A stretch of DNA of 41,138 bases from the NCBI GenBank assembly GCA_937941765.1, contig CALDGQ010000022.1, forward strand, positions 1 to 41,138. The letters run 5' to 3'. A model generated the notes under the pieces. The model was given only the letters and a program-made list of their open reading frames with translations, did no database searches and was not told where the DNA came from. Shown here piece by piece: positions 314-36,284 of the stretch. How positions within the stretch are numbered: position 1 is the first letter of the stretch; every line of letters begins with the position of its first letter. Origin of the DNA: an uncultured Saprospiraceae bacterium (GTDB taxonomy: Bacteria; Bacteroidota; Bacteroidia; Chitinophagales; Saprospiraceae). The position numbers and the translations under genes are program-made.

Positions 314-3277
314 CTAATTCCAACACCAAACACCCAAACAAGGACAAGGAGGAAAATCAATGCCATCACGTTTACCAACAATAAAAAAACGTCTATAATA
401 AAACATCAAAAGCATTAACATCATCCCAACTCCACCATACCAAATTGAAGCAAAACTTATTTTTGATACCGGCGACATATCTCCATAAGGAACAAAAGCG
501 GCCCAATATTTTGGATGTGCTTCATGTGCGCTATGTTTTTGTAGATACTCTTTTTTTGCCAAACATAGCGCATTGTCTTTAGATACATATGCTTGAGAAA
601 GGTGTTTATAAAATCTATTCATTAAATCAGCAGAAAGTTCGTCATTGATATTCCAAAGCGTTGTAACAATACTCTTGGCACCTGCTTCAATAAAACCTCG
701 AGAAATACTGATAATGCCTTCTCCTTTAAACACTTTTCCAACACCAGATTCACATGCACTTAATACAACCATATCAGCTTTTAGATTGAGATTGCTCAGC
801 TCGTTACTAAACAATTTGAAATCTTCAGAAGAAATCGGTATCGTATCTGCTCCATTGGTAAAAGCGATATAAGAATAGTCTGGGTTTTTATCATCGACTT
901 TTGCATGGGTTGCTAAATGAATGAATCGATAATCGCCTGCAAACTTCATAAAATTTTCCTTATTGGCGACCGTATCAACCAATGCATGACTGTATAACCA
1001 ATTTTTAATAAAGTCGATTTCCTTTTTGTTATAATCCAAATCATTCAACTCACCTCTAACATCTGCAATAGAGCGACCACTTGAAGCGGTATGGGTAAAA
1101 GAGGGCGCAAAAGAAAGGACCTCTGATTTAGGTGTTGCAACATGTTTTTTATTTTCAAGATTATCTAACATGGTACTTGAAAAACAGTAACTGATGTCAT
1201 GATCTTGAATTAAATATGGAAATTCACCAAACTCTTTAGGATTGTCTATTGGACCCGTCAATAATACTTCAAAAGGTAAATAATACAACGGACCATCTGG
1301 GATGATGATTAATTTTTTGGTCAAACCATGTTTTTCTTTTAATGGTTTTAATAAAACGTCATAAAGCCGTTTTGCATCGGAGACGAAATCAGCTGGTTGT
1401 CCATAAGAGATTTTTTCTTTTAAATTTCCGGCAGCTAAGAGATCTTCTTTAGTTAGATTTAATTTTTCAAAGTGGACTTGGTCTTTTTTAATTAGGAAGA
1501 CGAAAGCGTTTTCTTTCCCTATGAAGTATTCTAGGATGGCCTCTTTACTTGTGAGTAACTTTGATTGTATTTTTGCAAGTGCTATGTTATTATCGTTGCT
1601 TTGTTTTGGCAAAAGAAGATTAATCTTTGTTTCCAACACTACGAGTTCTTCTTGCATTTTAAAAAGTTTATTTCGTAAGGTAGCAAGCTCGATTTTATTT
1701 GTGTTTTGTTCAGAAATGCGGGTATGAATTAATTTTTCTAAAGTTACAATTTGATGTTTGAGTAGATAGTATTCGTTCGAAATATCTGGAGGTATTTCAG
1801 CAAAGTTTAAATCATTTTTGTGTTTAAATAATTTCAATAAAGAAGCGGATTTACTGGATTCCAAAATCCCAAAAATATTATCGTTAGCATCCATCCCCAA
1901 ATCAAATCCAATTGACAATACTTCTTCAAACAATCCATAGTTTCGATTAACTATGCCAATTACATCTTTTTCATTACGGGTTTGCTCGGCCATAGCTTTT
2001 TTCATCAACTGTATGCATTTTCTGCCCGTTTCAAATGCGATATATTTTAATTCTGAGGAATTTTGTTCAGTTGCAATTTGATTTAACGCCGTGGTTTTAA
2101 GACGAAGTGTTTTAATTAAATCTTCATCAACGAATAGATCTGCAGCATCAGGACTTGCAACAAAATCCGATTTATCAAATGATAAAACATGTTGCTGTAA
2201 AGCTAATTGGAAGTTTTTTAAAGCGATTTCGGTTTTATTTTTATTTAAATAGAATTCGCCAATTGTCGCATATGTTTTTGCAATTTGAAGATGTTTTGAT
2301 TTATAAAGTGCGTGTAATTTTTGTAATGAACTTTTGAAGTAAGTAGCCGCTTTTTCGTCTAGGTTATTTTTTCCGTAAGCAAGTCCTAAAGATAATTCTG
2401 AATTAGCAATAATATTTTTTTGTGCTTTCGAAAATAGCAATGATTTATTTAACAATATAATTGCACTATCTAAATTATTCAATTCCAAATAGCATTTGCC
2501 GCGTAGTTCGTAAAATTGACAAAGTAGATTTTCTGCCCGTTCTGGAAACGCTTTATCAGCGCTAAATTTATTCATTAAATCTGGTATGCAATTTTCAAAA
2601 TTAGCCATTGCAGCTTCACATAAATGAATTCTAGTTTGAAAAGCAGCTAAATTGCAAATACTTTCTTTTACACTTTGATGATTTTCATTTCCATATTGTT
2701 GAATAACAGTTAGAATCTCATTCTGAATATACCTCAGCGCTTTATCATGATTTCCTTTTCTTTCTGCATCAGTATAAAGATATTGGTAGGTGTTTATCAG
2801 ATTTGCGGTATCAGATTGAGTCCAAACTTTTTTATTTTGAAACAATTTGATATTTTCTTCAAAGTATTTATTTGCGTGATTGAAATCTCCTATTTTGTAT
2901 AAATAACTTCCAATGGAGTGATTATTAGATATTTTTAATGAGTCATTCTTGTAAAATATGGATGCAGTATTAAGAAGTCTCTCCGCCTTCTTTAGATTAA
3001 AGTAAATGCTGTCAACTTGATTATAATAAAGCGCACAATTTCCTTTTAATTCTAACGCCTTATAGATAGATATGGTATCTTTTTCAAATGAAGCTTTAGA
3101 AATAATAGCGTTTAGATAATAGTTTGTAAGCTTTAGGTCAGGACTAAAATTCAACTTCGCAAGTTTAAATAAACTGTCCGTTGAAATCTCCTGAGATTTC
3201 AACGGACAGATAGAAAACATAAAAACAATCGAACATTGAATTAATTTAAAAACTAATATTTTTAATTTTTTCCTCAA
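314..3277 (-). CDS. TPR-repeat protein with a C-terminal CHAT (caspase-like) protease domain and a C-terminal transmembrane anchor; the N-terminus looks like a signal peptide
   Basis: 987-aa ORF. The N-terminal hydrophobic leader and the long central region are rich in TPR-like helical repeats (recurring LGxAY/KAxxYF-type motifs). The C-terminal ~300 aa has the CHAT signature, with a conserved His (…FIHLATHAKVD…) and Cys (…MVVLSACESGVG…) dyad. A hydrophobic segment WYGGVGMMLMLLMFYY and a Cys-rich tail follow. Confidence 0.8.
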   Translation of the reverse strand: MRKKLKILVFKLIQCSIVFMFSICPLKSQEISTDSLFKLAKLNFSPDLKLTNYYLNAIISKASFEKDTISIYKALELKGNCALYYNQVDSIYFNLKKAERLLNTASIFYKNDSLKISNNHSIGSYLYKIGDFNHANKYFEENIKLFQNKKVWTQSDTANLINTYQYLYTDAERKGNHDKALRYIQNEILTVIQQYGNENHQSVKESICNLAAFQTRIHLCEAAMANFENCIPDLMNKFSADKAFPERAENLLCQFYELRGKCYLELNNLDSAIILLNKSLLFSKAQKNIIANSELSLGLAYGKNNLDEKAATYFKSSLQKLHALYKSKHLQIAKTYATIGEFYLNKNKTEIALKNFQLALQQHVLSFDKSDFVASPDAADLFVDEDLIKTLRLKTTALNQIATEQNSSELKYIAFETGRKCIQLMKKAMAEQTRNEKDVIGIVNRNYGLFEEVLSIGFDLGMDANDNIFGILESSKSASLLKLFKHKNDLNFAEIPPDISNEYYLLKHQIVTLEKLIHTRISEQNTNKIELATLRNKLFKMQEELVVLETKINLLLPKQSNDNNIALAKIQSKLLTSKEAILEYFIGKENAFVFLIKKDQVHFEKLNLTKEDLLAAGNLKEKISYGQPADFVSDAKRLYDVLLKPLKEKHGLTKKLIIIPDGPLYYLPFEVLLTGPIDNPKEFGEFPYLIQDHDISYCFSSTMLDNLENKKHVATPKSEVLSFAPSFTHTASSGRSIADVRGELNDLDYNKKEIDFIKNWLYSHALVDTVANKENFMKFAGDYRFIHLATHAKVDDKNPDYSYIAFTNGADTIPISSEDFKLFSNELSNLNLKADMVVLSACESGVGKVFKGEGIISISRGFIEAGAKSIVTTLWNINDELSADLMNRFYKHLSQAYVSKDNALCLAKKEYLQKHSAHEAHPKYWAAFVPYGDMSPVSKISFASIWYGGVGMMLMLLMFYYRRFFIVGKRDGIDFPPCPCLGVWCWN

Positions 3278-3291
3278 ATCTACTTCTGAAA

Positions 3292-3825
3292 TTATGGTAT
3301 TGGTTTTTCTTCAATTTTAATGTAAATATGAACGGTTGCATTTACTGGCATCATCACTTCTGAGTTTTGGTCTAAAGTAAGGATTTTATAGCCAGATGCA
3401 GTATCCTCAACGGTCTTTCCACTATTCAATTTAAAATAAACTGCTGGTGATATTGATGAAGAAATTTGTATATCAATTATATTATATTTTGTACAATCTT
3501 GAAAAATATAAAATGGTATACCAGTACTTTTCCAAATTACGCCCATTGGACATACTGGCGGCGGCCATGGTCCTTTATATCCAGATGTATCTGGTTCAGG
3601 GACTTTTTTTGCAATCCATTTAATTGAATCATTGTAGATGGAATTGATTTCAGAACTTACTGGTGTATCGCCAATGACCGTCATAATAACAGGTACATTA
3701 TTAGGAAAAAAAAATTCAGCAAGATACTCAGATATGAAATGTCCCCAAAAAGGACTTTTACCCATATTATTTTCCATGTGTGTGAATTTCTTCAATTTGT
3801 CTTCAAATGGTGCTCCCATAATCAA
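3292..3825 (-). CDS. Hypothetical protein of 177 aa, with no recognisable motif; its stop is 14 bp before the start of the CHAT gene on the same strand
   Basis: Intact ORF on the same strand as the CHAT gene and tightly linked to it. No signal peptide and no known catalytic motif seen. Confidence 0.45.
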   Translation of the reverse strand: MIMGAPFEDKLKKFTHMENNMGKSPFWGHFISEYLAEFFFPNNVPVIMTVIGDTPVSSEINSIYNDSIKWIAKKVPEPDTSGYKGPWPPPVCPMGVIWKSTGIPFYIFQDCTKYNIIDIQISSSISPAVYFKLNSGKTVEDTASGYKILTLDQNSEVMMPVNATVHIYIKIEEKPIP

Positions 3826-4138
3826 TTTGTTTTAATGAATTAAAAAATTTAATTGTTATATACGAATTTAGATGGCCACCAAATTAATGATAGCGAATAG
3901 TTATTCAAGGAAAGGTGAATTCAAAAAGTAGAGTTGAAAAAGTATTGTTGCTAAGGTTGTTGAAAGATAGCAAAAAGAATCACAATAACAATAATATAAC
4001 GGAATAATATTATTGTAAACAAGTTGACTAATCATACTTTGTCAGTTCCCCAAATATAAGTGTCTAAAGTTGATAAATTGTTACCATACAAATAGAAGAA
4101 ACTTTAAAAAAGTGACGTTTGGGAATTGATTGTGATAA

Positions 4139-5059
4139 TTAGGCATCCTTTTTATCATAGATCAAAAACTGATAGGTTTCCTGAAAAGCATAAAACACCT
4201 CAGCAAATGATTTCGCTTCTTTATAAAATGGGCAAGGATCATTTCCAAGTTGGTGCATAGATAAAAAGTCAACTAATTTATCCAAAGCATATTTCCGCAC
4301 ATCATTGATCGCTCGGTCTTTCTCAAAACGAAGGATGTTGTAAAACTCAGACATCGCATTTTCTATCAAAACCGCATTTCTTTCCCAAATCCACATAAAT
4401 TGAATATTGTTGCGGTCATAAGCTTTATTCCTCTTTTCAATTGGATCTTTTAAATGAATCGCATCCGTCATTACATTTTTACGTCGTTGATTGATTAATC
4501 CTGAAACGAAATACGGGAAATGATTGTTATATAATGTTTGATTTGATAACTTTGAAATAGTGTCTGGATAATCAAACCCATTAAAAACAGAAACTTTTTC
4601 TTGTAAAAATCGATCTGCCCAAATTTCATCTTTAAAAGATTGAGGACGTAACTCAGGTAAAATAAAATAGATCAATACTTCAGAATAAATGGAAGCTTCA
4701 ATCTCATTGTTCTTCATTTTTTCCATCCATGAGAAAAAATCGAAATCGCCCAAATGAAAAGGGAAGTATTTCAAGGTATTGCGATGATACAGCTCGTGAA
4801 AATAATATAAATCAGACTGCACCGGATTGTCATAATGTCGATAAGGAATGGCATTAAACCACGCCGAAAAATGCGGCCGTTCTATTTTGTAATCAGTATA
4901 CTGGAAAAAGATAATAGGGTAGTCACTTACTTTTTGACAAAATTTATAGATAAAAGAATAGCTATCTTTCATCGCATTTTTAAATGGTTCTGATTTCCAT
5001 AATTTATGCAAATGATCCATTACTTTTTTCCTTTCAACTATCAATTCTAGTTGCTCCAT
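4139..5059 (-). CDS. Hypothetical protein of 306 aa containing an HExxH-like motif (FHELYH); possible metal-dependent enzyme
   Basis: ORF overlaps the upstream gene by 13 nt, which suggests translational coupling. The HELYH motif was read from the translation. No other domain recognised. Confidence 0.5.
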   Translation of the reverse strand: MEQLELIVERKKVMDHLHKLWKSEPFKNAMKDSYSFIYKFCQKVSDYPIIFFQYTDYKIERPHFSAWFNAIPYRHYDNPVQSDLYYFHELYHRNTLKYFPFHLGDFDFFSWMEKMKNNEIEASIYSEVLIYFILPELRPQSFKDEIWADRFLQEKVSVFNGFDYPDTISKLSNQTLYNNHFPYFVSGLINQRRKNVMTDAIHLKDPIEKRNKAYDRNNIQFMWIWERNAVLIENAMSEFYNILRFEKDRAINDVRKYALDKLVDFLSMHQLGNDPCPFYKEAKSFAEVFYAFQETYQFLIYDKKDA

Positions 5060-6120
5060 CGCTCCATCAAATTTTCATAGTGAGAAAATAAATCAGCATC
5101 ACTTTTATTGTTGACAATTTTATCAATTTGTGGACTCATTACAAAACGATTAACACCTGCTCTTTCCAAATCATTGAATTCACTATCTATATGTTTTCGA
5201 TATCCTAATAAGAATACATCACTTGGGACTACCTTATGATTGGCTTCAGCATTTATTTCCTTATTTAATAATGCTAATGATTGTTCTTGTGCTTCTTGAT
5301 AAACTAAGCGTTTCTCCGATTCTGGAAAAGCATCCAACAATAAATTTGCTAATTGAAAAGAAGGCGCATTTTTAAACCACATTAAATTTCCAATTAATCC
5401 GGGTAATTCCATTTTTGAAAGGATACCACCAATTCTATCATAAAAACAGCCACCAAAACTTTTGCTAAAACTAAAAAAGATTCCTTTTACAGAAGTATGA
5501 TTAAGGTTTACTTGTTGAACTTTATAAGTGGTTCCATGATATGCGAAGTCCAACCAAACTTGGAGTTTTTTCTCATCAGCAAAATTCAAAAATACTTCTA
5601 AATCTTTCCAATAATTCCCATCAATTGCCGAAGGTTCGCTGATGATGACCAACTGTTTTTCCATTACGTCCTTTAAGTCTTCTTCAAAATGATTTCGATC
5701 AAATGCAGTCACTGGAATTTTTGCATCTGCAGCATAATGGTAATATCCTTCATACTCACCTTTCATCAAACACATGCCGCTTCCTTTTGAAATTAGGTCC
5801 CTACAATTATTTCCAAAATGCTGAATTACATATCGAAATCCTTCACTGGATCCAGATGTCGGATACACATTTGAATACTGATCTAAATGAGAAACACCGG
5901 ATGATAACCAAGCTCTTATTTTTTCAAAGAATGAAATATGACTGAGATCTTGTGCTTTAAGGTAACTGTGACGACCAATTTGAATAGCAGCTTCTGAATT
6001 GGTATAAAACTGAGTTTTTATTTTTTCGACGGGTTGCCATTGCGGGACATAGACACCTTTGCAGAGACCTAATTTAAGTAATTCGATGTCTCTTTCACTA
6101 AGGGTTTTTGTGTAATTCAT
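5047..6120 (-). CDS. PLP-dependent aminotransferase class I/II fold protein (divergent)
   Basis: SFSKSFGGCFYDRIGG matches the SxSKxxGxxGxRxG Schiff-base lysine motif of class I aminotransferases. ISEPSAIDG resembles the PxNPxG motif, and LDFAYHG is a D/E-AY-like motif. Confidence 0.6.
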   Translation of the reverse strand: MNYTKTLSERDIELLKLGLCKGVYVPQWQPVEKIKTQFYTNSEAAIQIGRHSYLKAQDLSHISFFEKIRAWLSSGVSHLDQYSNVYPTSGSSEGFRYVIQHFGNNCRDLISKGSGMCLMKGEYEGYYHYAADAKIPVTAFDRNHFEEDLKDVMEKQLVIISEPSAIDGNYWKDLEVFLNFADEKKLQVWLDFAYHGTTYKVQQVNLNHTSVKGIFFSFSKSFGGCFYDRIGGILSKMELPGLIGNLMWFKNAPSFQLANLLLDAFPESEKRLVYQEAQEQSLALLNKEINAEANHKVVPSDVFLLGYRKHIDSEFNDLERAGVNRFVMSPQIDKIVNNKSDADLFSHYENLMERWSN

Positions 6121-6382
6121 ATGGTGGAAAATTGTAGTGTAATTTATGATTTAATTGGTTGGTAGGCAAGTGATGAGATGCACGCTTGTTTCGTTGGATC
6201 CATTTGATTATCCGCCGATGCCAGATAGTTCCTTCCTTGGCAGGAAGGACAATGCGTGAACTCGCCAGACTGTGCAAATATGCTTTCGGAAACTGAACCG
6301 CAGAATATCCAACCGTAGAATATCGAATGTCGAAGTAGAGTACGTGGACAAATAAGCATGAAATTCGTTAATATACGCTGCA

Positions 6383-6410
6383 CCCTTCCTTTTCAAAGAA
6401 GGGCCTTTTT
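6383..6410 (+). terminator. Candidate intrinsic terminator or attenuator hairpin (cccttc-N9-gaaggg followed by ccTTTTTgcTTTgc) in the leader upstream of the sensor kinase
   Basis: 6-bp GC-rich stem followed by a T-run on the + strand only. No + strand CDS lies upstream of it, so it may end a small RNA or act as a leader attenuator. Confidence 0.35.
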
Positions 6411-6547
6411 GCTTTGCATATTAGAGGATGGATCAACCCACCCGAACAAACCAAATATCCAACCGATAGTCCGATGACATTTGCCAAACTATAATCTTTT
6501 TGGTATCATTACATAGGATCATTTTTTTACAGCTTGAAGATGCTAGG

Positions 6548-9500
6548 ATGTTAAGAGGAAAAAATCTATGCTCGATCTGTTTTGCACTCTTTCTGACCAT
6601 TTCTCTGGTCGCACAGCAAAATCAAAACGACCTCATCGTTCATAAAACACCATTGTTTGAATCGGATAACAATTGGGGATTGTCGACTCGCTTTATCAAA
6701 GATTTATTTACGGACAAAGATGGGATTATTTGGATAGCCTCTTCTAAAGGGTTGATTAAATATGATGGAACCAATGCTACTGTTTTTGATAGTAGTGTCA
6801 ACAATCCATATCGCATCCATTCTGATGATATCAGAAAAGCATTTGAAATGAAAAATGGGGATTTGATTTTATATTCATTTCGATCTGGTTTGCAATTGGA
6901 GTTATTGAAAAAGGGAGCGATGCAATCTTCTAAAATTGAATTGTCGGCTAATGACAAAAAGATTGACGGCTTTTTAGCAGATGTGAGCATTTCAAAAGAT
7001 GGCGTTATCTATGCTGCTTTCAATACTGGAAAATCCATTTTGATTTATAAGCTGATTGAACATCAGTTAGAATTTTTTAGAGCTTTTAATTTTGACGCCT
7101 CCATTTTAGGAAAGAAAATAAGTATCGCACCTTATGATCGTTCGGTATGGATAGCAGTTGAGGGATTAGGCGTTTTTGAGCACTTTAATCGACAAATTAA
7201 AGTGTTAGATTTTACAACTCTTAGTGAAAGTAAATCGATTTTTCCGAATTCATTTTTTGAAGATAATCTTGGTAATTTTTGGCTTTGTTTGGAAGAATTA
7301 CAGGATAATGTTTTCAAATGGGATGGAAAAGCTTTTGAAAAATTTGAGACCCCAATTAAAGAAGAAGTTGCGCAAATTATAGAGTCAGCAAGTGGACAAT
7401 TACTTTTTGTAGCTGGTAAATATCCGGATGCTATAACCAGTACATTTGCTTTGATTGATGGAGAATGGATTGATTATACGAGTTATTTAGAAACAGGTTA
7501 TGTTAGTTTATTTCCTTCCAATGATTTGAGTAAATCATTTTTTGTTCGCACTAAAAATAATGTACTTAACATTAGTTTTACAAATAATAAAATTACCAAC
7601 TATTTGAATCAGTCATTGACCAATAATCAATGGGGTAACATTATTATGGGGGTTAACGAGGATCTTTATGGAAATATTTATTTTATTGCGGAAAGTGATA
7701 ATTTTTACAAACTTGAAAAGGAAAGTAAAGAACTAACAAGAATTCCAATCATTGAATCAAATGGGGAAGAGCTTCAATTTGGTTGCGGAATGGCGATTCA
7801 CAGAGATAGCAAAGGGCAATTGTGGTTTGTCGCCTGTGATCGGGAACGTCGTGGTATCTTGATTAATTACAATCCTGGATCTAATAAGTTTAATTTCGTT
7901 TTTCATAAACATTTGATTAGAGGGATTCACATTGATGAAAATGATGTAATCTGGACGGTCCATAATAATGAACAAGTAGAAGTAGGTGTATTGACTTCTT
8001 ACAATATCGCTACCAAAGAAATTACCGACATTCCATTATCAGCTGCTTTTGTAGAGCCGCGTTTTTGCTATTCCAACAATATAGATTCTACCTTGTGGAT
8101 TGGGACGATGAAAGGACTCATTTCAGTCAATAAAACGACTTATGAAATGAAAACCTATAATGTAGAAAATAGTTTTTTGAAAAGTGATCGGATTATTTCA
8201 ATGTTAGATCATGACGGCAATAAATTGTTGACAGGTACATTTGGAGATGGATTACAAATTATTGATTTTGAAAACAAAAATGCAACCTTAATTGGGAAAG
8301 AAGCAGGGTTGTCAAATAATTTTGTTTGCGGAATCATTCCAATTGACAAAAGTAATTATTGGTTGAGTACTTTTAATGGATTGAGTTTTTGCAATATTGA
8401 AGATAAGACGGTTATCGAATATGGAGAAGCAAATGGGTTTGCACATTATGAATTTAATCGCCATGCCTATTTTCAAGCTAGTGATAGTACGAATTATTTA
8501 GGATCTGTCAATGGAGCAAGTTCTTTTTTAACAAAAGACTTACTACCTGAAAAATCGAATGCTTCAATTGGAATTTCTTCTATTAAAAAATATTATGGTA
8601 AAAAAGATACGATAGAAGTACTGAAAGGAAGTCATGAAAATTTCGATCAAATCGTATTATCTCCAGATGTTACTTATCTAGAAATAGATTTTTTTCAAAC
8701 AAATTTTAATGGTTCTCAACAACCTAAATTGTATACTCGGCTGACACCTTATGATGATAATTGGGAATATGCTGGAGAACATAAAAGGGTACGATATCGA
8801 TTGCTTCCACCAGGTACATACGATCTTGAAGTTAAGAATCAATTTAGCACTCAAATAAAAAAACTTAAGATTATTTCTGAAACACCGTTTTACAAACAAA
8901 TCTGGTTTCCAATCGCTGTAGTTTTAGGAAGTGCATTGTTTTTTTATGGTTTATATAGAAATAGAATTAAGAAAGTAAAGGCAGAAGACAAGGCGAATCA
9001 GGAGATTAATAAAAAATTTGCTGCACTCGAATTACAAGCATTACAATCTCAATTGAACCCTCATTTTATTTTCAATGCATTAGGTGCTATCCAATATGCG
9101 ATTCGTGAAAATGATAATCAACGTGCAGAACATTTCTTGACCAGTTTTGCTTCTTTGATGCGTTTGTTTTTAGAGTCTTCTAAAAAGAAACATATTTCTG
9201 TTGCGGAAGAGATTGAACTGATAAGTAAATATGTAGAGTTAGAGCAACTACGTTTCAATAATCGGTTTGATTTTGAATTTAATATCGATGAAAAAATAGA
9301 TATTTACAACACAGAGATTCCGTCTTTACTTTTTCAGCCGTTTGTAGAAAATGCAATAAATCATGGGTTATTTCACAAAAAAAATCAAGGTCTTTTGCAA
9401 ATTAATATTCAGATTGAAGATGACAAGTCCTTACATTGTATCATCGAAGATAATGGGATTGGACGTGTTAAATCTGCTGAAATAAAGAAAAGATCTATCA

Positions 9501-9646
9501 ATAATCATGTATCCAGGTCGACTCAAATTGTAAACGAAAGAATTGAAATTTTACAAAAAGTAGAAGACTTAGATTTGAATATTGAAATTCAAGATTTACT
9601 AGAAGGTACAAGAGTTGTGTTGGATATACCAATACAGTCTGATTAA
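6548..9646 (+). CDS. Sensor histidine kinase, LytS/YehU-type (His_kinase + HATPase_c), with a large periplasmic two-component-regulator beta-propeller (Y_Y_Y-like) sensor region
   Basis: The start was chosen at the in-frame ATG at 6548 (MLRGKNLCSICFALFLTISLVAQQ, a signal-peptide-like sequence) rather than the ORF-track start at 6500. The propeller region is ~780 aa, rich in W/G/Y, and followed by a TM helix (IWFPIAVVLGSALFFYGLY). It is followed by the LytS-family H-box QLNPHFIFNALGAIQ and a GHKL ATPase region (ENAINHG…DNGIG). Confidence 0.85.
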   Translation: MLRGKNLCSICFALFLTISLVAQQNQNDLIVHKTPLFESDNNWGLSTRFIKDLFTDKDGIIWIASSKGLIKYDGTNATVFDSSVNNPYRIHSDDIRKAFEMKNGDLILYSFRSGLQLELLKKGAMQSSKIELSANDKKIDGFLADVSISKDGVIYAAFNTGKSILIYKLIEHQLEFFRAFNFDASILGKKISIAPYDRSVWIAVEGLGVFEHFNRQIKVLDFTTLSESKSIFPNSFFEDNLGNFWLCLEELQDNVFKWDGKAFEKFETPIKEEVAQIIESASGQLLFVAGKYPDAITSTFALIDGEWIDYTSYLETGYVSLFPSNDLSKSFFVRTKNNVLNISFTNNKITNYLNQSLTNNQWGNIIMGVNEDLYGNIYFIAESDNFYKLEKESKELTRIPIIESNGEELQFGCGMAIHRDSKGQLWFVACDRERRGILINYNPGSNKFNFVFHKHLIRGIHIDENDVIWTVHNNEQVEVGVLTSYNIATKEITDIPLSAAFVEPRFCYSNNIDSTLWIGTMKGLISVNKTTYEMKTYNVENSFLKSDRIISMLDHDGNKLLTGTFGDGLQIIDFENKNATLIGKEAGLSNNFVCGIIPIDKSNYWLSTFNGLSFCNIEDKTVIEYGEANGFAHYEFNRHAYFQASDSTNYLGSVNGASSFLTKDLLPEKSNASIGISSIKKYYGKKDTIEVLKGSHENFDQIVLSPDVTYLEIDFFQTNFNGSQQPKLYTRLTPYDDNWEYAGEHKRVRYRLLPPGTYDLEVKNQFSTQIKKLKIISETPFYKQIWFPIAVVLGSALFFYGLYRNRIKKVKAEDKANQEINKKFAALELQALQSQLNPHFIFNALGAIQYAIRENDNQRAEHFLTSFASLMRLFLESSKKKHISVAEEIELISKYVELEQLRFNNRFDFEFNIDEKIDIYNTEIPSLLFQPFVENAINHGLFHKKNQGLLQINIQIEDDKSLHCIIEDNGIGRVKSAEIKKRSINNHVSRSTQIVNERIEILQKVEDLDLNIEIQDLLEGTRVVLDIPIQSD

Positions 9647-9667
9647 ATTTTGATGTATAATGTTAAG

Positions 9668-9862
9668 ATGTATGATTTATGATATGACCGTTGTTGCGTC
9701 AGGCTGTGCGAAAATTCCCAAGAGCAAAGAGGTTAGAAACCTTTTGCTCGAATACCGTGTGTGTTACGAGATGAAGGTTTCTAACCTCTCATCTCCTACG
9801 AGTATTTTCGCACAGTCTGGCGTGTGCATACAAATCGGCTGTCATATCATACATCATACATT
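9668..9862. repeat. About 195 bp of extended imperfect palindrome with three nested inverted repeats, occupying the kinase-regulator intergenic space
   Basis: Outer arms: atgtatgatttatgatatgaccg (9668-9690) against cggctgtcatatcatacatcatacat (9837-9862). Middle arms: ggctgtgcgaaaat (9702-9715) against attttcgcacagtc (9804-9817). Inner arms: gaggttagaaacctt (9729-9743) against aaggtttctaacctc (9774-9788), a perfect 15-mer. The 69-aa ORF 9660-9869 lies inside this structure and is probably spurious. Confidence 0.55.
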
Positions 9863-9926
9863 CAAATGAACGAAGTGATTTAGAAAAAAATCATACACCC
9901 ATTACTTAACTACAGAAAACAATAAA

Positions 9927-10670
9927 ATGATCAAAACATTATTGGTCGATGATGAATTACTTTCGATTGAAAACTTGAAGGAAAGTATAATATCTAATTT
10001 TCCGAATTTAGAAATCGTAGGGACTGCTCAAAATGCAGATGAGGCGTTTGATTTAATAAATACCTTAAAACCGGAATTGGTTTTTCTGGATATTGCCATG
10101 CCTGGAGCAAGCGGATTTGATTTGTTACGAAAATTACCTGAATTAGAATTTGAGGTAATATTCGTTACCGCATTTGACCAATATGCAATGGATGCCATCA
10201 AATTTTGTGCAATCGGTTATGTACTGAAGCCTATCAATAAGGAAGAGCTTTTACATGCCGTTCATCGAGCTGTTAAATCTATTGGCCAAAAAAACGAGTT
10301 TAATAGAAACGTACAATTATTGGAGAATTTGGTCAATCCTGGCAATCAAAACAATCGTATTGGTATTCCAAGTCCTGATGGATTAGAGTTTGTGTCTATT
10401 CACGAAATTATCCGGTGTGAAGGAGTGCAACGATACACCAAAGTGTTATTTAAAGATCGAAAGGAACTTCTAAGTTCTTATAATTTAGGAGAGTTTCGTC
10501 GGTTGCTTGAAAACTATGGGTTTTATTCCGTTCACAAATCCCACCTTGTTAATTTGAATCATGTCAAACGTTATGATAAGGAAGGATTTGTGCAAATGAC
10601 TGATAATTTTAATGTTCCAGTTGCACGCAGAAAGCGACAAGATTTTATGCAATTTTTGACAAGGATTTAG
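9927..10670 (+). CDS. LytTR-family response regulator (CheY-like receiver plus LytTR DNA-binding domain)
   Basis: Receiver motifs (LLVDDE…, phospho-acceptor region LVFLDIAMPG, …KP) and a C-terminal LytTR domain (IRCEGVQRYTKV…YSVHKSHLVNLNHV). It sits immediately downstream of the LytS-type kinase. Confidence 0.9.
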   Translation: MIKTLLVDDELLSIENLKESIISNFPNLEIVGTAQNADEAFDLINTLKPELVFLDIAMPGASGFDLLRKLPELEFEVIFVTAFDQYAMDAIKFCAIGYVLKPINKEELLHAVHRAVKSIGQKNEFNRNVQLLENLVNPGNQNNRIGIPSPDGLEFVSIHEIIRCEGVQRYTKVLFKDRKELLSSYNLGEFRRLLENYGFYSVHKSHLVNLNHVKRYDKEGFVQMTDNFNVPVARRKRQDFMQFLTRI

Positions 10671-10865
10671 TGAACTTTCGCTCTTATTCCGATGGGTGAA
10701 TCAGATTGACCGTAGGTAGGACAACATTTTGAAATCCTTCATAATTGGAATATCATTACATTGTATTTAGAAGAACGGAATTATAACTAACATACAACTC
10801 ATTAATACTATGAAACAATATCAAATTTTTTGTCCCGTGATTCTTAACCCCAAAAAATGAGCACA

Positions 10866-10900
10866 AAAGACTTTTATCGCCTGCGATATAAAGTCTTTTA
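10866..10900. terminator. AT-rich near-perfect hairpin (aaagacttttatcgc-ctg-gcgatataaagtcttt) between convergent genes; candidate bidirectional terminator, with the better T-run on the minus strand
   Basis: Stem of ~14 bp with a 3-nt loop. On the minus strand it is followed by cTTTTgtgctcaTTTTTT. Confidence 0.35.
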
Positions 10901-11039
10901 GTGTACCAATGAAAAATAACTATACTAGTTTATAAGATATAATTAAGGTGTGATTTTATAGTAGTGTGGCGAAATTGAACTGTCAATTTCCCGCACTATT
11001 TTTTTTGCCTGAATCATTCAGAAGTGAATTCTGATTACC

Positions 11040-12056
11040 TCAACTTAGTGTACCCAAATAATCTTCCATTAAACTTTTTGATATTTTATAGGCATCCGTA
11101 ATCTGCAATTGGAATACCTGATCCAGCTGAAGATCGTTGTCTGTCAGCTCAATATTATTTTTTAATTTATAAAGTGTGTTTAAACTTTTCGAAAAATGAT
11201 GACCTCTCAAATATTTGAAATATAAATAATTACCACGCTCATTGATTAAGGCATGATATGGTGCATTTTCCATCTGATTCAAATCTATATCTTGAACCTC
11301 ATTAATTTTAACAATTGAATTTCGTTTGCCTTCTATTAATTGGTCACAATTTTCAGTAAGACTAAAAACAACTTCGGGTGTTGGTTTGATCTTGAAGTGG
11401 ATGCTGTTAGATTCCTTTTGATTAATTTTTAATACAGCAAAAGAAACTTCGTGAGAATCATTATCCAATGCCACGAAAATAGTTTTTCGATGAGCACACA
11501 ATTTGCGATCATAATGACCCGTAAAAATATACCGTGTGGGAATATCAAATAATCTAATTCTTCTTTTCAGTTGTGCATGAGCCAAAACAATATCGTACGG
11601 TTCCTGATTTGCTTCAATCAACGTTTTTAGTTTCTTCTTGAATTTGGAACAACTGTAAGGAATACCTAAAATGCTTAAACCACCAATCTCGACTTTTTTA
11701 TTATTAATATCTTGCGAATACTGTAAGCTTTCCGAAAATGCAACAACTTGATTGTAATACTTCGGATCGTCATGATTTCCACTTATAAACAGCGACGGAA
11801 TTTTCTTTCTTTCCAAAAAGGTGAGTAGTAAATTGAAGGCATGATGAAAACCATGACCACATGAACCATCACCAGTGATATCACCTGCAAATAAAACTAG
11901 GTCTGCTCGTTCATCTTCTACAATTTGGAGATACCGATAAATTCTTTGATAACGAGGAATGGAAATACGGGAAGGATCAAAAGAAAGCACTTCACTTTCG
12001 GTCATCGACCTTAGGTGAGATTCCCAATTTAAATCGCTCAATACAAGAATATTCAT
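11040..12056 (-). CDS. Calcineurin-like metallophosphoesterase with a ~120-aa C-terminal extension of unknown function
   Basis: Metallophosphoesterase motifs in order: ILVLSDLNWESH (D/H), LVLFAGDITGDG (GDxxD), FISGNHDD (GNH[DE]), VLAHAQL, FTGHYDRK (GH). Confidence 0.8.
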   Translation of the reverse strand: MNILVLSDLNWESHLRSMTESEVLSFDPSRISIPRYQRIYRYLQIVEDERADLVLFAGDITGDGSCGHGFHHAFNLLLTFLERKKIPSLFISGNHDDPKYYNQVVAFSESLQYSQDINNKKVEIGGLSILGIPYSCSKFKKKLKTLIEANQEPYDIVLAHAQLKRRIRLFDIPTRYIFTGHYDRKLCAHRKTIFVALDNDSHEVSFAVLKINQKESNSIHFKIKPTPEVVFSLTENCDQLIEGKRNSIVKINEVQDIDLNQMENAPYHALINERGNYLYFKYLRGHHFSKSLNTLYKLKNNIELTDNDLQLDQVFQLQITDAYKISKSLMEDYLGTLS

Positions 12057-12329: not shown

Positions 12330-14753
12330 TCAAACCTTGGTCGAAGTCATCGAAGCAATAACTTCCATATTGAAATGATCCTTTATCTGTACATAAGCAA
12401 CTCGACTTTCTTGCGTGGCACCAAACTTTCGTTTTGTTTCTTCGGCAGTAAATCCCCAATAGATTTTTTCAAAATTCAACTCCATACCTCGAATCATTAA
12501 TCGATATAGCATTTGTTTATAAATCTCATGCGATTCATTGTATTTATAATCCATGCCGGCTAGCATTGGACAATAATTTTTGGCAGATTTATAACAACAA
12601 GCCACTGCAATAGGAGTTGATTCGTCTTTTTTGTCAAAGATATACATGAATTCCCAGTTGGGATTTTCTGACATAGTATCTAAATAACTGATTGGATAGT
12701 CGAATAAATTTACAGCTAAATTGTTCTTTTTAACATTTTGAAATAATTTGTAAACTTGTTGTTTCAAACTAGCAGTGATTTTGTCGACGAATTGAACCGA
12801 CAGCTCATCTTTATAAGCAAGTACTTCATTTTTTAGTTTCCTTCTTCGTTTTGCTGAAACCGTACTAAGATATTCTTCGAAATTTGCCCAAGACAAATGT
12901 ACAATGTTGGTATCTGGAAGATTTATTTTCAAAAATCCTTCTTCTAAAAGGTAAGTATGAAATGCTTCATCACTTGCATTCAAGTCTCTGAACATAACGC
13001 CATTCACATTTAAGGTGTCAGCAAGGTTTTCTATTTCATTAAAAAATACTCTTAAAACTTGTTTCCAATCAGAACGATTTTTGTCCAAAAACAAATGATC
13101 TCCTTCAGTTAAAAAAGAGCCCATCATCAATTTATAGGAAGTTAAATAATAGGGTTCTTTTTCTCTTCTTTGTTCTATTTGAAATGAAATGCTTTCTGGT
13201 TCAAACATATCGTCTTTATGTATACCGTGTGTTAGAAAAGTACACAATATCGGAGCTCTTGATGTTTTATCACGGATAAGGATGTAATGGAAAGAAAAGT
13301 TATTTTCCTTTTTGTCATTTCCAGAAAAAATGGTTTGTTGAGTGATCATGCCATTGTAATCAAAGCAACCTCTATCAGCCAATAATTGATCCCATTCTTC
13401 CTTTTTTACATCCGCAATGTCTGTGTAATATTCCAGAACATAATTTCCAATTACTTTTACAGTTGCTGATAATTTTGATTTTACCGTTTCTTTTTCAATT
13501 AATTTAAAAGCTTTACGAATCTCTTTATTTGTTCTATTTTCAGATTCCAAAACTTTAGGAAAATGATGAACGAGGGTCTCGACGAATGCTTTGATATCAT
13601 CTTTAGATTGGTGTCGTGTAATCGTAAATCTTAATCCAGTATTTTTAATTGGCACCGCTGGGAAAACGCCTATTGATGAATAGAATCCACTAGCCATTAC
13701 TCGACGGACCATTTCATAACCGGTTTTAGGTTGTCCCATTCCCAGAAAATAAATAGGTGTAATAGGATCTGAAATAATAGGCAAGTCAGTTTTTTCTAAC
13801 AACTTGTTTGTATAATCTAATTTTTCTTGTAATTCATTTTGTAAAGTATAAATTTCTTCAGATAAACAAATTTCTGTCATTGCTAGTGCAGCCCCAATTG
13901 TTGCTGGAGGTAGCGGATGAGAATAGGTGAGTGGTCCACCAAAAGAACGTACCTTCTTGTAAATTTTTTCGTTTGGAAAAACCAATACACCACCGACAGC
14001 ACCAAATCCTTTTGCTAAAGTAGTACTTAAAATAATCCGCTCATTAATTCCAAAAACGTCGAATGCATACCCCGTTCCATTTTTTCCATACCACGCCATC
14101 CCATGTGCATCATCAATATAGATATGAAGTCGAGGATATTTTTGCATCATCATTTTGATGTCATCAAACGGAGCGACGTCTCCATACATAGAATAAACCC
14201 CATCGACGAGGTACCATACTTTGTCGTATTTTTCACCGCACTTTTTTAAAGTATGCTCAAGCATATCCATGTTATTGTGGCGGATCATGGTGATTTCTGC
14301 ACCTTTTTGACGCGCAACTTGAGCACCTGTTTGTACACTCATATGCACTTGCTGGTCCAAGATGATCATATCTTTGTAAGAAACCAAAGTAGGAATTGCA
14401 GATATATGTGAAATGGATGTACTTGACTGGACGATGGCAGGATGACCAAACATCGCCCCAATTTGTTCTTCCAATTGACCATTGATTTGACTGGTCATGT
14501 AAGTACGTGAAATGGAAAACTGAGTCCCATATTTTCGAGTAAACTCAATTGATTTTTCGATTAATTTCGGATGAAACTCAATACCGAGATAACCGCAAGT
14601 GCCAAAATTAATTAAGTTTTGACCTTTGACTAGAAGTTCGTTTCCTGAGTAGCCTTCTTTGTCTGTTTCTAAAAAAGTAAGTCCTCTGTTTTTGGCATCT
14701 GTTGTAATATCTGAGATAAGGTCAAGGTGATTGTTGTGGTTGATTTTAGCCAT
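12330..14753 (-). CDS. Fusion protein: N-terminal alpha-oxoamine synthase family PLP enzyme (BioF/KBL/serine-palmitoyltransferase-like) plus a C-terminal BioF2/FemAB-like GNAT acyltransferase domain
   Basis: AOS motifs: FGTCGYLG, IDDAHGMAWYG (DxxH), and the PLP lysine in STTLAKGFGAVGG. The C-terminal ~400 aa is non-PLP and resembles the 'BioF2-like' Acetyltransf_6 family that is often fused or adjacent to BioF homologues. Length is 807 aa. Confidence 0.85.
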   Translation of the reverse strand: MAKINHNNHLDLISDITTDAKNRGLTFLETDKEGYSGNELLVKGQNLINFGTCGYLGIEFHPKLIEKSIEFTRKYGTQFSISRTYMTSQINGQLEEQIGAMFGHPAIVQSSTSISHISAIPTLVSYKDMIILDQQVHMSVQTGAQVARQKGAEITMIRHNNMDMLEHTLKKCGEKYDKVWYLVDGVYSMYGDVAPFDDIKMMMQKYPRLHIYIDDAHGMAWYGKNGTGYAFDVFGINERIILSTTLAKGFGAVGGVLVFPNEKIYKKVRSFGGPLTYSHPLPPATIGAALAMTEICLSEEIYTLQNELQEKLDYTNKLLEKTDLPIISDPITPIYFLGMGQPKTGYEMVRRVMASGFYSSIGVFPAVPIKNTGLRFTITRHQSKDDIKAFVETLVHHFPKVLESENRTNKEIRKAFKLIEKETVKSKLSATVKVIGNYVLEYYTDIADVKKEEWDQLLADRGCFDYNGMITQQTIFSGNDKKENNFSFHYILIRDKTSRAPILCTFLTHGIHKDDMFEPESISFQIEQRREKEPYYLTSYKLMMGSFLTEGDHLFLDKNRSDWKQVLRVFFNEIENLADTLNVNGVMFRDLNASDEAFHTYLLEEGFLKINLPDTNIVHLSWANFEEYLSTVSAKRRRKLKNEVLAYKDELSVQFVDKITASLKQQVYKLFQNVKKNNLAVNLFDYPISYLDTMSENPNWEFMYIFDKKDESTPIAVACCYKSAKNYCPMLAGMDYKYNESHEIYKQMLYRLMIRGMELNFEKIYWGFTAEETKRKFGATQESRVAYVQIKDHFNMEVIASMTSTKV

Positions 14754-32363: not shown

Positions 32364-33818
32364 GTGAGCTTAAAAATCCTTTGTACCAATTCCTACTTTT
32401 ATCAATACGATGAAAAGCAATGGAAAATGGCCCAGCCATATCCACCGCTTGGTACTTTATATGCTGTGTCAGTTTTACGCCAAAATCAATTCCATACTTC
32501 TTTTTTTGATAACAATTTAGTTTCAAACCATAATGAGATCTATCAGGTCATCGAAAATGAAAAACCTGAAATACTAGTCATTTATGATGATGGGTTTAAT
32601 TATTTGACAAAGATGTGTTTGACAAAAATGCAAAACGCAACTTTTGAAATTCTGAAATTTGCTAAAGAAAGAGGCATTATTACGATTTGTAATAGTTCAG
32701 ATTCAACAGATCATTACCAACAATATCATGAAAACGGAGCGGATTATATTATTCATGGAGAAGGAGAAGATGCACTCGTAGAATTGTGCAGTACCTTATC
32801 TAATAACGAATTTGTAAACAATTTGTTGGGAATAAGTTTTGTTGAAAATGAGAAAATTACTTTAAACGCAAAAAGATCGGTCAAAAAAGACTTAGATAGT
32901 TTGCCAATGCCAGCTTGGGATGTAGTTGATATTGATAAATATAAAAATATCTGGGAGTCTAATCATGGTTATTTCTCTTTAAACCTAGCGACGACGAGAG
33001 GCTGTCCATATAAATGTAATTGGTGCGCAAAACCAATTTATGGAAACCGCTACAACTCTAGATCTCCAGAAAAAGTAATGGATGAAATCGAATATTTAGT
33101 CCAAACTTTTGAGGTACCTTACTTTTGGATGTGTGACGATATTTTCGGGTTGAAACCTGGTTGGGTGCAGAAATTTAACGAAGAAAAAAGAAAAAGAAAC
33201 CTCAAATTTAAATACAAAATTCAATCTCGTGTAGACTTAATGCTGCAAGATGATCATTTGGATGCGCTGGCGGAAAGTGGTGCAGATATGATTTGGGTTG
33301 GAGCAGAAAGTGGTTCTCAGAAAATATTAGATGCCATGGATAAAGGCACCAAAGTAGAACAAATATATGAAGCAACAGAAAAATTAAAATCACGTAATGT
33401 TAATGTTGCATTTTTCTTGCAATTCGGATATTTAGGGGAAACTTGGAAAGATATTCAGCAAACAATCAACATGGTTTTAGATTTAGTGCCAGATGATATC
33501 GGAATTTCTGTATCTTATCCTTTACCTGGAACTAAATTTTATGACAAGGTAAAAGCAGACCTTATTTTGAAGACCAATTGGACAGATTCTGATGATTTGG
33601 ATCTAATGTTTAAAAATAATTTCCCGCCTATCTTTTACAAAACGTTGCATCGTTATGTTCACAACAGATATCGAATTAAAAAAGGAATTTTAAGTTTTAA
33701 AACTCCTTTTTCGTCCATGAAATCGAAAGGATTTGATTTTTTAAGAATGATTTATCATTTGCCACTAGCAATGCTTAATCGCCTATTATTGTTGAAGCAT
33801 ACTTTTCGTCAACCATGA
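32364..33818 (+). CDS. B12-binding domain radical SAM enzyme (class B rSAM, likely methyltransferase)
   Basis: N-terminal Rossmann-like cobalamin-binding region (…ILVIYDDGFN…), rSAM cluster motif TRGCPYKCNWC (CxxxCxxC), and a C-terminal helical region. GTG start. Paralogous in its N-terminus to ORF 34588. Confidence 0.85.
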   Translation: MSLKILCTNSYFYQYDEKQWKMAQPYPPLGTLYAVSVLRQNQFHTSFFDNNLVSNHNEIYQVIENEKPEILVIYDDGFNYLTKMCLTKMQNATFEILKFAKERGIITICNSSDSTDHYQQYHENGADYIIHGEGEDALVELCSTLSNNEFVNNLLGISFVENEKITLNAKRSVKKDLDSLPMPAWDVVDIDKYKNIWESNHGYFSLNLATTRGCPYKCNWCAKPIYGNRYNSRSPEKVMDEIEYLVQTFEVPYFWMCDDIFGLKPGWVQKFNEEKRKRNLKFKYKIQSRVDLMLQDDHLDALAESGADMIWVGAESGSQKILDAMDKGTKVEQIYEATEKLKSRNVNVAFFLQFGYLGETWKDIQQTINMVLDLVPDDIGISVSYPLPGTKFYDKVKADLILKTNWTDSDDLDLMFKNNFPPIFYKTLHRYVHNRYRIKKGILSFKTPFSSMKSKGFDFLRMIYHLPLAMLNRLLLLKHTFRQP

Positions 33819-35976: not shown

Positions 35977-36037
35977 TTAGATGTTTTTGTTAATCATTTC
36001 TTGGTTTACCTTTATTTCTAGGAAGTTTTTTTTTTGT

Positions 36038-36199
36038 TTTTTACCACTAAGCAGGTTTTACCACTAAGAAGGTAAGGCACTAAGAGGGACTAAGATCAGG
36101 TATAGTTTCTGAGATTTATTTAAGTAATTTTTGGGAAGTCTTTTATGTTTTTTTACCACTAAGAAGGTAAGGCACTAAGAGGGATTCAGATCAGGTATA
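36038..36199. repeat. Direct repeats with a ~96-bp period upstream of the multiheme cytochrome gene
   Basis: Two 48-49 bp copies (36056-36104 and 36151-36199; 44/48 identical, with 34 consecutive identical bases ttttaccactaagaaggtaaggcactaagaggga) plus a partial third copy (36038-36060); the motif cactaag recurs within each copy. Confidence 0.6.
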
Positions 36200-36284
36200 C
36201 TTCCTGCGTTGTTTTGCGCTTTCTGCGTGAGGCATTTTAAGAAACAAGAGCATCGGAATATCAGAAAAAGTCGTAATTTCCCAC

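Follow-up and report, generated by a model that had tools for sequence, protein, structure and literature searches.

A TPR-CHAT protease gene and its linked upstream orphan gene in an uncultured Saprospiraceae bacterium

Proteases that combine a tetratricopeptide repeat (TPR) array with a caspase-like CHAT domain are known from three well-studied settings, separase, Csx29 and DdvA, and in each of them a partner or a signal controls a very specific cut. DdvA, described by its authors as the only characterised periplasmic TPR-CHAT protein, is tethered to the inner membrane by a single helix and was proposed to sense a periplasmic protein signal through its TPRs (PMC11506125). In Runella, a member of the Bacteroidota, a gasdermin is activated by an adjacent CHAT protease, which cleaves it after Leu247 (bioRxiv 10.1101/2021.06.07.447441). 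Here we describe a TPR-CHAT protease gene, together with the small orphan gene directly upstream of it, on the minus strand of a 41,138-nucleotide (nt) contig of an uncultured Saprospiraceae bacterium; this whole stretch of DNA is called the window below. For comparison we used three loci, L001, L006 and L008, each carrying orthologues of both the small gene and the TPR-CHAT gene. All four cassette-bearing genomes are Saprospiraceae-like, and the proteins flanking the cassette are 65-93% identical between the window and L001.

The conserved unit consists of a leader, the small gene and the CHAT gene, and measures about 4 kb. We tentatively read it as a clade-specific cassette in which an envelope protease of the separase/craspase type is accompanied by a co-expressed, fast-evolving cytoplasmic accessory protein or regulator, and we hold this reading at a little below an even chance. 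The protease itself belongs to known families and has a widespread architecture, while its 175-residue neighbour represents a new family of four members.

The TPR-CHAT protein and its predicted topology

The TPR-CHAT gene (positions 314-3277, minus strand) has a TTG start and encodes 987 amino acids (aa), as delineated by Pfam, AlphaFold and the orthologues. The preliminary description of this DNA had credited the protein with a hydrophobic leader, a TPR array, a His/Cys dyad, a C-terminal transmembrane (TM) helix and a Cys-rich tail, and every one of these features was found in its place. The Pfam CHAT model (PF12770) gave 201 bits against a cut-off of 24 (E 3.5e-59), aligning residues 635-933 with positions 4-289 of the 289 in the profile; TPR_12 and TPR_2 were matched as well. 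His791 (IHLATHAKVD, nt 905-907) and Cys842 (VLSACESG, nt 752-754) make up the catalytic dyad, which was invariant in alignments of 7, 4 and 16 sequences. The predicted His/Cys protease would presumably be proteolytically active.

An AlphaFold model computed from 16 sequences had a mean predicted local distance difference test score (pLDDT) of 83.2 and a predicted template modelling score of 0.77. In it, a first helix (residues 2-23) is followed by a break of low confidence (24-29). A solenoid that is helical throughout spans 33-555 and an alpha/beta domain 567-935; a further helix (942-968) leads into a disordered tail. The solenoid, seen both in the helical repeats of the model and in the Pfam TPR matches (residues ~33-555; 1613-3181, minus strand), is the fast-evolving part of the protein, and the CHAT caspase-like domain follows it (residues ~567-935; 473-1579, minus strand; Pfam, alignments and model). 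When the model was compared with the PDB by Foldseek, the best matches were Csx29 (8eey_B, E 7e-18; 8d9g_A, 6e-16), followed by human separase (9hn0_B, 7e-15), Myxococcus DdvA (8rot_A, 9e-13) and another separase structure (5u1t_A, 8e-11). On the query, which is itself a predicted structure, the TM-scores were 0.23-0.43; such modest values are to be expected of flexible solenoids. As modelled, then, the 987-aa protein shows the separase/craspase-type TPR-CHAT fold class. A PDB sequence search with the CHAT profile returned bacterial kinesin-light-chain TPRs only, and no PADLOC defence model matched the protein at E≤1. The orthologous proteins have 963-973 aa and are 40-57% identical to that of the window; pairwise, the orthologues share 54-86% identity in the CHAT domain (86% between L001 and L006) and 32-46% in the TPR region, with 23-57% in the accompanying small protein.

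Hydropathy revealed exactly two hydrophobic segments in the protein, 5-26 and 940-958. The first is preceded by the basic MRKKLK and forms the core of a predicted Sec signal peptide (residues 1-28; 3194-3277, minus strand), which is supported by hydropathy, the orthologue alignment and the model. The second lies in the C-terminal TM helix (residues ~942-968; 374-454, minus strand; hydropathy and model) and has basic residues (RR..GKR) after it. A signal-peptide-like N-terminus is common to all four orthologues, as is a C-terminal TM helix with a basic cytoplasmic side. Leu26 and Gln29 are invariant in the four, and the predicted cleavage site, LKS|Q29E, lies just before Gln29. Most signal peptidase I substrates of Bacteroidota expose an N-terminal Gln, which is known as the Q-rule (PMC5837995, PMC10653852); since the invariant Gln29 fits this rule, the signal peptide would most naturally be cut there. 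A signal peptide of this kind combined with a C-terminal anchor leads us to predict that the catalytic domain faces the periplasm, i.e., that a periplasmic TPR-CHAT body is held by a C-terminal inner-membrane anchor with a short cytoplasmic tail. No match to the C-terminal sorting domain of type IX secretion systems (T9SS; Por_Secre_tail) was obtained for either the TPR-CHAT protein or the small protein.

The public gene call begins at Met20 and gives 968 aa. The longer, TTG-initiated form appears plausible, because all three orthologues likewise possess a basic and hydrophobic, signal-peptide-like N-terminus. We also observed a Bacteroidota -7-like box, TAGATTTG, at 3275-3282 (minus strand), where it overlaps the TTG. 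If this box were used, the transcript would begin past the TTG and translation would proceed from Met20, yielding a protein without the signal peptide; the motif does not exceed its chance frequency in the window.

The C-terminal helix had been thought unusual. A survey of 65 full-length TPR-CHAT relatives showed otherwise: a C-terminal TM-like helix with a basic tail was present in 57 of them and a hydrophobic N-terminus in 54, so that the order signal peptide-TPR-CHAT-TM is the norm in a large Bacteroidota family and the helix is a typical trait of it. The Cys-rich tail beyond the helix (KRDGIDFPPCPCLGVWCWN and the stop codon; 314-373, minus strand) proved, by locus comparison, to be lineage-specific. 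In L001, the homologous DNA (~12896-12940) sits past a TGA stop, where the same frame reads FLPCSFLGAWSWN* and stays open for 13 codons, ending at the same position as the tail of the window; all five codon differences between the two copies are non-synonymous. The corresponding DNA of L006 (~5495-5530) also follows the stop and is in another frame, and L008 lacks it altogether. In the model of the window protein, the pLDDT of the tail is below 50. The Cys-rich tail is therefore not a conserved protein feature. We also considered the likeness between FPPCPCLGVW in this tail and the motif WPPPVCPMGVIW of the small protein, and dismissed it as a coincidence, because two orthologues have the tail only as non-coding DNA and the third lacks it, and the two stretches share no DNA similarity.

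The small upstream gene and its linkage to the protease gene

The small orphan gene (3292-3819, minus strand), as defined from the sequence and its homologues, starts with the ATG at 3819, ends with the stop codon at 3292-3294 and encodes 175 aa. A mechanical open reading frame (ORF) would run over 3292-3825 and give 177 aa from a TTG; the orthologues favour the ATG. With the start corrected in this way, the domainless ORF that was reported to end 14 nt before the CHAT gene on the same strand has been borne out, and no family match was found for it. The spacer between its stop codon and the CHAT start (3278-3291, minus strand) reads TTTCAGAAGTAGAT.

Homologues of the small protein are rare. 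A word-indexed search of 5.8 billion protein clusters retrieved only the protein itself, and a full HMMER pass over 1.84 billion representatives revealed one true homologue, P0018 (175 aa, 44% identical). A profile search then added P0021 (40%) and P0020 (23%). Nothing further came from the JGI metagenomes, searched with both the small-protein and the CHAT profiles, or from IMG/VR, searched with the small-protein profile. One more candidate, a 1322-aa protein with Cna-B-like repeats (P0019), reached E 4e-5 as a sum over 7 repeats and was judged non-specific. Its weak match covers residues 132-165 of the small protein, and may be noise or else a sign that the C-terminal third contains a small beta-sandwich.

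In the four lineages, the small protein has diverged to 23-57% identity and has kept its length, its frame and a mid-protein GPWPPxxC motif. Moreover, when two near-identical strains (L001, at ~9651, and L002) were compared over 8 kb, the sole difference within the cassette was an in-frame insertion or deletion (indel) of 6 nt, located in the small protein's PNPNPNP repeat; the two strains are identical in the leader and the CHAT gene. The retention of length, frame and motif across four lineages, together with the in-frame nature of the strain indel, indicates that the small ORF is a real gene.

The protein it encodes gave no match in Pfam, NCBIfam, PHROGs or PADLOC, even at E-values of ≤1 to 10, and none of the four homologues had any Pfam match at E≤10. 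A PDB profile search at E≤10, which included the bacterial gasdermin structures, returned only an enterotoxin B chain (E 1.1). Neither a signal peptide, nor a lipobox, nor a TM segment was detected in any of the four proteins, the maximal 19-residue hydropathy being 1.13 for the window protein. In each of the four loci, the ATG is preceded by an in-frame stop at a distance of four codons, so that the N-terminus cannot be extended to gain a signal peptide. Since it has no export signal, the small protein most likely stays in the cytoplasm. The four proteins are neutral to acidic (isoelectric point, pI, 5.6-6.9). Their composition is aromatic/hydrophobic (aromaticity 0.09-0.13) and not disorder-like, and the small protein is probably folded. 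The C-terminal third is predicted to be beta-rich. The AlphaFold model reached a pLDDT of 41.6 only, with residues 1-109 below 50, perhaps because the alignment held just four sequences, and a Foldseek search with this low-confidence model produced mere noise, for example beta-barrel fragments of AcrA/MexA at E>0.6.

In the databases searched, the small gene was found directly upstream of the orthologous TPR-CHAT gene in all four lineages, at distances of 14 nt in the window and 18, 31 and 45 nt in the orthologous loci, and no homologue search ever placed it apart from that gene. The adjacency is kept even where the genes further upstream differ. A four-sequence profile run over all six-frame ORFs of 88 fetched loci matched the orthologous loci alone; it detected no small gene in the other 79 TPR-CHAT loci taken from GTDB, nor in L005. 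These results support, at the sequence level, the view that the 175-aa ORF is a genuine partner specifically linked to the orthologous TPR-CHAT gene, and the 14-nt spacer implies that the two would be co-transcribed. The preliminary description had proposed the ORF as a candidate partner or substrate from its position. Linkage is what stood up, in that each homologue found adjoins an orthologous TPR-CHAT gene, so that the ORF is neither absent nor displaced in the orthologous CHAT loci; the idea of a cleaved effector gained no support.

The surroundings of the cassette show that it occupies a fixed chromosomal site beside an indel hotspot. The window and L001 have in common the neighbouring genes for a Band_7 protein (93% identical), an 807-aa aminotransferase/FemAB-like protein (77%) and a Metallophos protein (73%). 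Between these shared neighbours and the cassette, the window carries genes for a LytTR response regulator, a Y_Y_Y histidine kinase, a 357-aa aminotransferase-like protein and a 306-aa HExxH protein. In L001, the Metallophos gene comes directly before the cassette; in L008, this place is taken by the 807-aa gene, and in L006 by a kinase gene and fragments of the 357-aa gene. The region from the 807-aa gene to the cassette (compared over 4139-12056 in the window, 7991-9454 in L001, 1-2049 in L006 and 1-814 in L008) thus varies between lineages from 0 to 5 genes, drawn from the Metallophos, LytTR, Y_Y_Y kinase, 357-aa and 306-aa genes. As for the aminotransferase-like and HExxH genes noted earlier at 4139-6120 (minus strand), they do exist and overlap by 13 nt; the 357-aa protein has a weak Aminotran_1_2 match (E 2e-7), and the 306-aa protein contains an HELYH motif and matched nothing in Pfam, NCBIfam, PADLOC or the PDB. 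Both genes lie outside the cassette unit: L001 and L008 have neither, and L006 retains the 357-aa gene in fragments only. The flanking genes (65-93%) have changed far more slowly than the small protein (23-57%) and the TPR region (32-46%). As a separate observation, the sequencing run ERR9287619 holds both the window allele (L089) and the 44%-identical allele of L006/L007, so that related populations with strongly diverged cassettes coexist.

Among the 25 window ORFs scanned with Pfam, no Cas, extracytoplasmic function (ECF) sigma, other defence or mobility family was encountered, and there is no transfer RNA gene. A mobile or defence island was accordingly rejected on these grounds and on the synteny with L001 at a fixed site.

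These data bear on the framework of gasdermin-protease pairs, Craspase and conflict-system effectors in which the locus was initially placed, and they lend it no support: no homology was detected, the predicted compartments differ, the context is not one of defence and the chromosomal site is fixed. Within that framework, the small protein would be an effector, either gasdermin-like or a pro-toxin, that stays latent until CHAT cleavage activates it, as in the bacterial gasdermin (bGSDM)-CHAT pairs or in Csx29-Csx30. It is true that an unassigned small gene placed directly before a CHAT protease whose dyad is intact, conserved as a pair and made of two fast-evolving members, recalls the Runella gasdermin and its adjacent protease. 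Against this stand the lack of any gasdermin or defence similarity (Pfam E≤10, PADLOC E≤1, PDB profile E≤10), a Foldseek search with nothing below E 0.6, albeit on a poor model, and the length of 175 aa, shorter than a Runella bGSDM that is cleaved after Leu247. In addition, protease and substrate of a gasdermin module share the cytoplasm, where the cut sets free a toxic pore-former, whereas here export is predicted for the protease and the small protein lacks a leader. No PADLOC model matched the CHAT protein, and the neighbourhood is an ordinary chromosomal one. Altogether, we regard activation of the small protein by cleavage as quite improbable.

The leader and the hairpin within the CHAT gene

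Upstream of the small gene, a four-locus alignment delineated a non-coding leader or promoter region of ~290 nt (3820-4112, minus strand; 9170-9454 in L001, 1763-2049 in L006 and 535-814 in L008). Its mean column identity across the four loci is 79-81% despite the different genes further upstream, and it is better conserved than the small protein and its coding sequence. The leader is not a small ORF, as its variable columns lack 3-nt periodicity and stops occur throughout every frame; nor could it be classed as a structured RNA, since RNAalifold gave -3.9 kcal/mol and no consensus structure, and no Rfam match appeared at E≤1. A Bacteroidota -7-like box, TATATTTG, is located at 4051-4058 within the leader, and this motif is not enriched over chance; scans for sigma-70 and Bacteroidota TAnnTTTG promoter motifs did not rise above chance either. 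We consider this region a candidate long leader or operator.

The second conserved nucleic-acid feature is a hairpin (3174-3209, minus strand) with a perfect 16-bp stem and a 4-nt loop, followed by TTTATTTAAA, which was recognised by folding and four-locus comparison. It lies inside the CHAT ORF, over codons 23-35, i.e., the codons for the signal-peptide cleavage region, with the loop on the Gln29 codon. In the window, it folds with -25.9 kcal/mol (z -7.0); at this position, L001 and L006 have hairpins of -18.0 and -23.4 kcal/mol, respectively, and L008 has a weak one of -8.6. The stem covaries: 8 of its 16 pairs are changed on both sides, and 84% of the alignment cells are paired, as compared with 34-52% in slid controls, all this within four sequences. 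No comparable hairpin was found elsewhere in the four orthologous cassette genes or in the wider TPR-CHAT family. The hairpin and its U-tract may serve as an intra-operon attenuator favouring the upstream small gene.

One could also imagine that the small protein is a cytoplasmic RNA-binding regulator which acts on the hairpin or on the leader to control translation or termination of the CHAT message. The covarying hairpin and the small gene co-occur in this clade only, conservation is higher in the leader than in the coding sequence of the small gene, and such a role would resolve the mismatch of compartments. With a pI of 5.6-6.9, no known nucleic-acid-binding domain, and a hairpin whose sequence varies between lineages and whose stem is weak in L008, we nevertheless find this very improbable.

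A further hairpin was noticed in the window at 21-126, about 190 nt past the CHAT stop. It is near-perfect, ~100 nt long, with -51 kcal/mol and a z of -8.7. In Rfam it matched only a plant microRNA-precursor model, below the family threshold, which marks it as a generic long hairpin, and no second copy of it occurs in the window or among the fetched loci. At the opposite end of the window (32364-38219, plus strand) there are two radical SAM genes, one with a B12-binding domain, and then a gene for a multihaem-cytochrome-like TPR protein. The latter is followed at 38348-40759 by a trypsin-like peptidase with a P-domain; like the radical SAM genes, it is unrelated to the cassette.

The Bacteroidota family, a proposed mode of action and known systems

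A scan of GTDB species representatives yielded at least 158 TPR-CHAT relatives, of which 80 were kept, nearly all from Bacteroidota and 25-35% identical. Two other subfamilies proved to have upstream partners of their own. In 19 of the 80 loci, mostly from Bacteroidales and Lentimicrobium with CHAT proteins of ~1100 aa, the upstream gene encodes a ~405-aa protein that combines a signal peptide with a CarboxypepD_reg/SdrD_B-like domain, a dockerin-like segment and a T9SS C-terminal domain (CTD; E 5e-10); these loci include L021, L027, L033, L035, L038, L044, L051, L054, L057, L067-L069, L076, L079, L084 and L086. In 7 of the 80, from Flavobacteriaceae with CHAT proteins of ~925 aa (L023, L024, L026, L032, L036, L045 and L050), it encodes a lipoprotein of ~202 aa with a central RPPCPxP motif. 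The partner type follows the size class of the CHAT protein, and the recurrence of upstream partners speaks for proteases that each rely on a dedicated neighbour. No homology among the three partner families could be detected at the sequence level: hhalign of the small protein against the lipoprotein family gave E 0.0024 and a probability of 12%, which is not significant and on which we claim no homology, and against the 405-aa family the probability was 0.2%. The preliminary description had also considered that the CHAT protein might belong to a widespread family with no dependence on a partner. The layout is indeed widespread, and more distant members, at ≤38% identity, do without the small gene, so that this much of the suggestion holds; the rest sits poorly with the partners that other subfamilies carry upstream. 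No paper on a Bacteroidota family of the type signal peptide-TPR-CHAT-TM was found in the searchable literature.

Because the partners in these two subfamilies are exported, as T9SS cargo or as a lipoprotein, the small protein might likewise reach the periplasm or the membrane, by a non-classical route, and be there a substrate, an adaptor or a ligand of the protease. The lipoprotein motif RPPCPxP occupies the same relative position as GPWPPxxC(P), on the weak alignment just mentioned, and the C-terminal third, predicted to be beta-rich, would suit a small periplasmic domain. The four homologues, however, possess no signal peptide, lipobox or TM segment and cannot be extended at the N-terminus, and the profile similarity is not significant for the lipoprotein family and is nil for the 405-aa family. 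We thus take non-classical export to be unlikely.

Returning to the accessory or regulator that we tentatively favour, the cassette would work as follows. Inherited vertically as a unit of ~4 kb in a narrow Saprospiraceae clade, it would provide a protease that is exported by means of a Sec signal peptide and stays tethered to the inner membrane through its C-terminal helix. On the model of separase, Csx29 and DdvA, recognition of a protein ligand would fall to the TPR solenoid, and the cutting of a specific envelope target to the CHAT domain. The small protein would be a dedicated accessory or regulator of this protease and not a cleaved effector, for instance an inhibitor or a chaperone of the unexported precursor, and the hairpin with its U-tract inside the CHAT ORF might attenuate read-through, leaving the small protein in excess.

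Several points weigh against this scheme. The pairing is drawn from gene adjacency and not from direct interaction. The small protein is predicted to be cytoplasmic and the catalytic domain of the protease periplasmic, so that any direct regulation would have to take place before export, or else be indirect, and the partners of the other two subfamilies are exported, which the small protein is not. The conserved leader has no predicted structure or recognisable promoter, and, as regards the attenuator, L006 lacks the U-tract and L008 has only a weak stem. The tree of the small proteins does not mirror that of the CHAT proteins: the L001 partner is an outlier at 23-28%, though its CHAT domain is 86% identical to that of L006. 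Finally, the four genomes are closely related, with flanks of up to 93% identity, and adjacency among them is therefore weaker evidence than adjacency across phyla would be.

Some of these points would also suit a situation where there is no functional link at all, the small gene being a lineage-specific neighbour co-inherited with the CHAT gene in close relatives. Only four lineages are known, all of them Saprospiraceae-like with similar flanks, the two trees are incongruent, distant TPR-CHAT genes lack the small gene and the predicted compartments differ. Yet the adjacency and the short spacers persist while the upstream region has been remodelled in every lineage, and conservation extends over leader, small gene and CHAT gene as a single block. 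Moreover, the 14-nt spacer is too short for a separate promoter, and a dedicated upstream gene is habitual in other subfamilies too. On balance, mere co-inheritance appears to us rather unlikely.

A bolder extension would see here a phylum-wide class of periplasmic, membrane-tethered, separase-like proteases of Bacteroidota, each subfamily with a dedicated upstream partner. In the present clade, this leaderless and fast-evolving partner would be a securin-like inhibitor or chaperone kept in excess by the attenuator hairpin within the first 100 nt of the protease ORF, and the system would serve envelope surveillance or processing, as proposed for DdvA. We put this forward as speculation and consider it unlikely as a whole. 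Its interest is nonetheless clear. A presumably exported, inner-membrane-anchored TPR-CHAT family in Bacteroidota appears to be unstudied, its subfamilies carry upstream partners of their own, and the Saprospiraceae cassette adds a clade-specific orphan partner, a conserved leader and a covarying hairpin. Periplasmic and surface proteolysis in Bacteroidota (T9SS, gingipains) is biologically important, and if the partners turned out to be substrates or regulators, they would define a new class of envelope protease systems. The family-wide picture is in this respect more interesting than the single pair, which on its own would be a curiosity of a narrow clade.

How does the locus compare with what has been described? 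The uncharacterised Bacteroidota family of "CHAT domain-containing proteins" counts the window protein among its members and shares its layout. The other members have no obvious partner or different ones (the 405-aa protein with a T9SS CTD and the 202-aa lipoprotein), whereas the 175-aa gene, the leader and the strong hairpin are confined to the four orthologous lineages.

Bacterial gasdermin-CHAT operons show the same gene order, a small protein and then a CHAT protease, which is sometimes fused to TPRs. The window pair departs from the Runella bGSDM system in that its small protein has 175 aa and no detected gasdermin homology, its protease is predicted to be exported, and a defence-island context is lacking.

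Csx29, the TPR-CHAT protease of the type III-E CRISPR Craspase and the top structural match, has both the TPR solenoid and the CHAT domain in common with the window protein, at a sequence identity of only 11-12%, and its protease acts on a dedicated protein encoded nearby, Csx30. It is cytoplasmic, bound to gRAMP/Cas7-11 and activated by RNA, and its gene accompanies those for gRAMP/Cas7-11 and Csx30/Csx31; by contrast, no Cas family was seen among the window ORFs scanned, and the window protein is predicted to carry a signal peptide and an anchor.

Separase belongs to the same fold class and is likewise a large TPR-CHAT protein, one that stands under the control of a small, rapidly evolving inhibitor and chaperone. 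Securins are poorly conserved in sequence, and the small partner described here resembles them in this trait, being 23-57% identical against 54-86% for the CHAT domain. Securin, on the other hand, is an intrinsically disordered pseudosubstrate inhibitor that binds along the TPR-CHAT protein and resides in the same compartment as separase, whereas the small protein of the window is aromatic/hydrophobic, probably folded and predicted to occupy another compartment than the mature protease.

With DdvA, the window protein shares a structural match, the conserved His/Cys dyad and the state of a membrane-tethered TPR-CHAT protein that is periplasmic, in our case by prediction. DdvA is a type II membrane protein, with a cytoplasmic zinc anti-sigma domain, a TM helix and a periplasmic TPR-CHAT part, while the window protein is predicted to have a signal peptide that is cleaved off, an anchor at the C-terminus and only a short cytoplasmic tail, which is not conserved. 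Neither an anti-sigma domain of the DdvA type nor a Sigma70 family was detected in the window TPR-CHAT protein or in the scanned window ORFs. DdvA is paired with an ECF sigma factor and controls an island of CBASS (cyclic-oligonucleotide-based antiphage signalling system) and CRISPR (clustered regularly interspaced short palindromic repeats) genes, whereas the partner of the window protein is an orphan protein of 175 aa.

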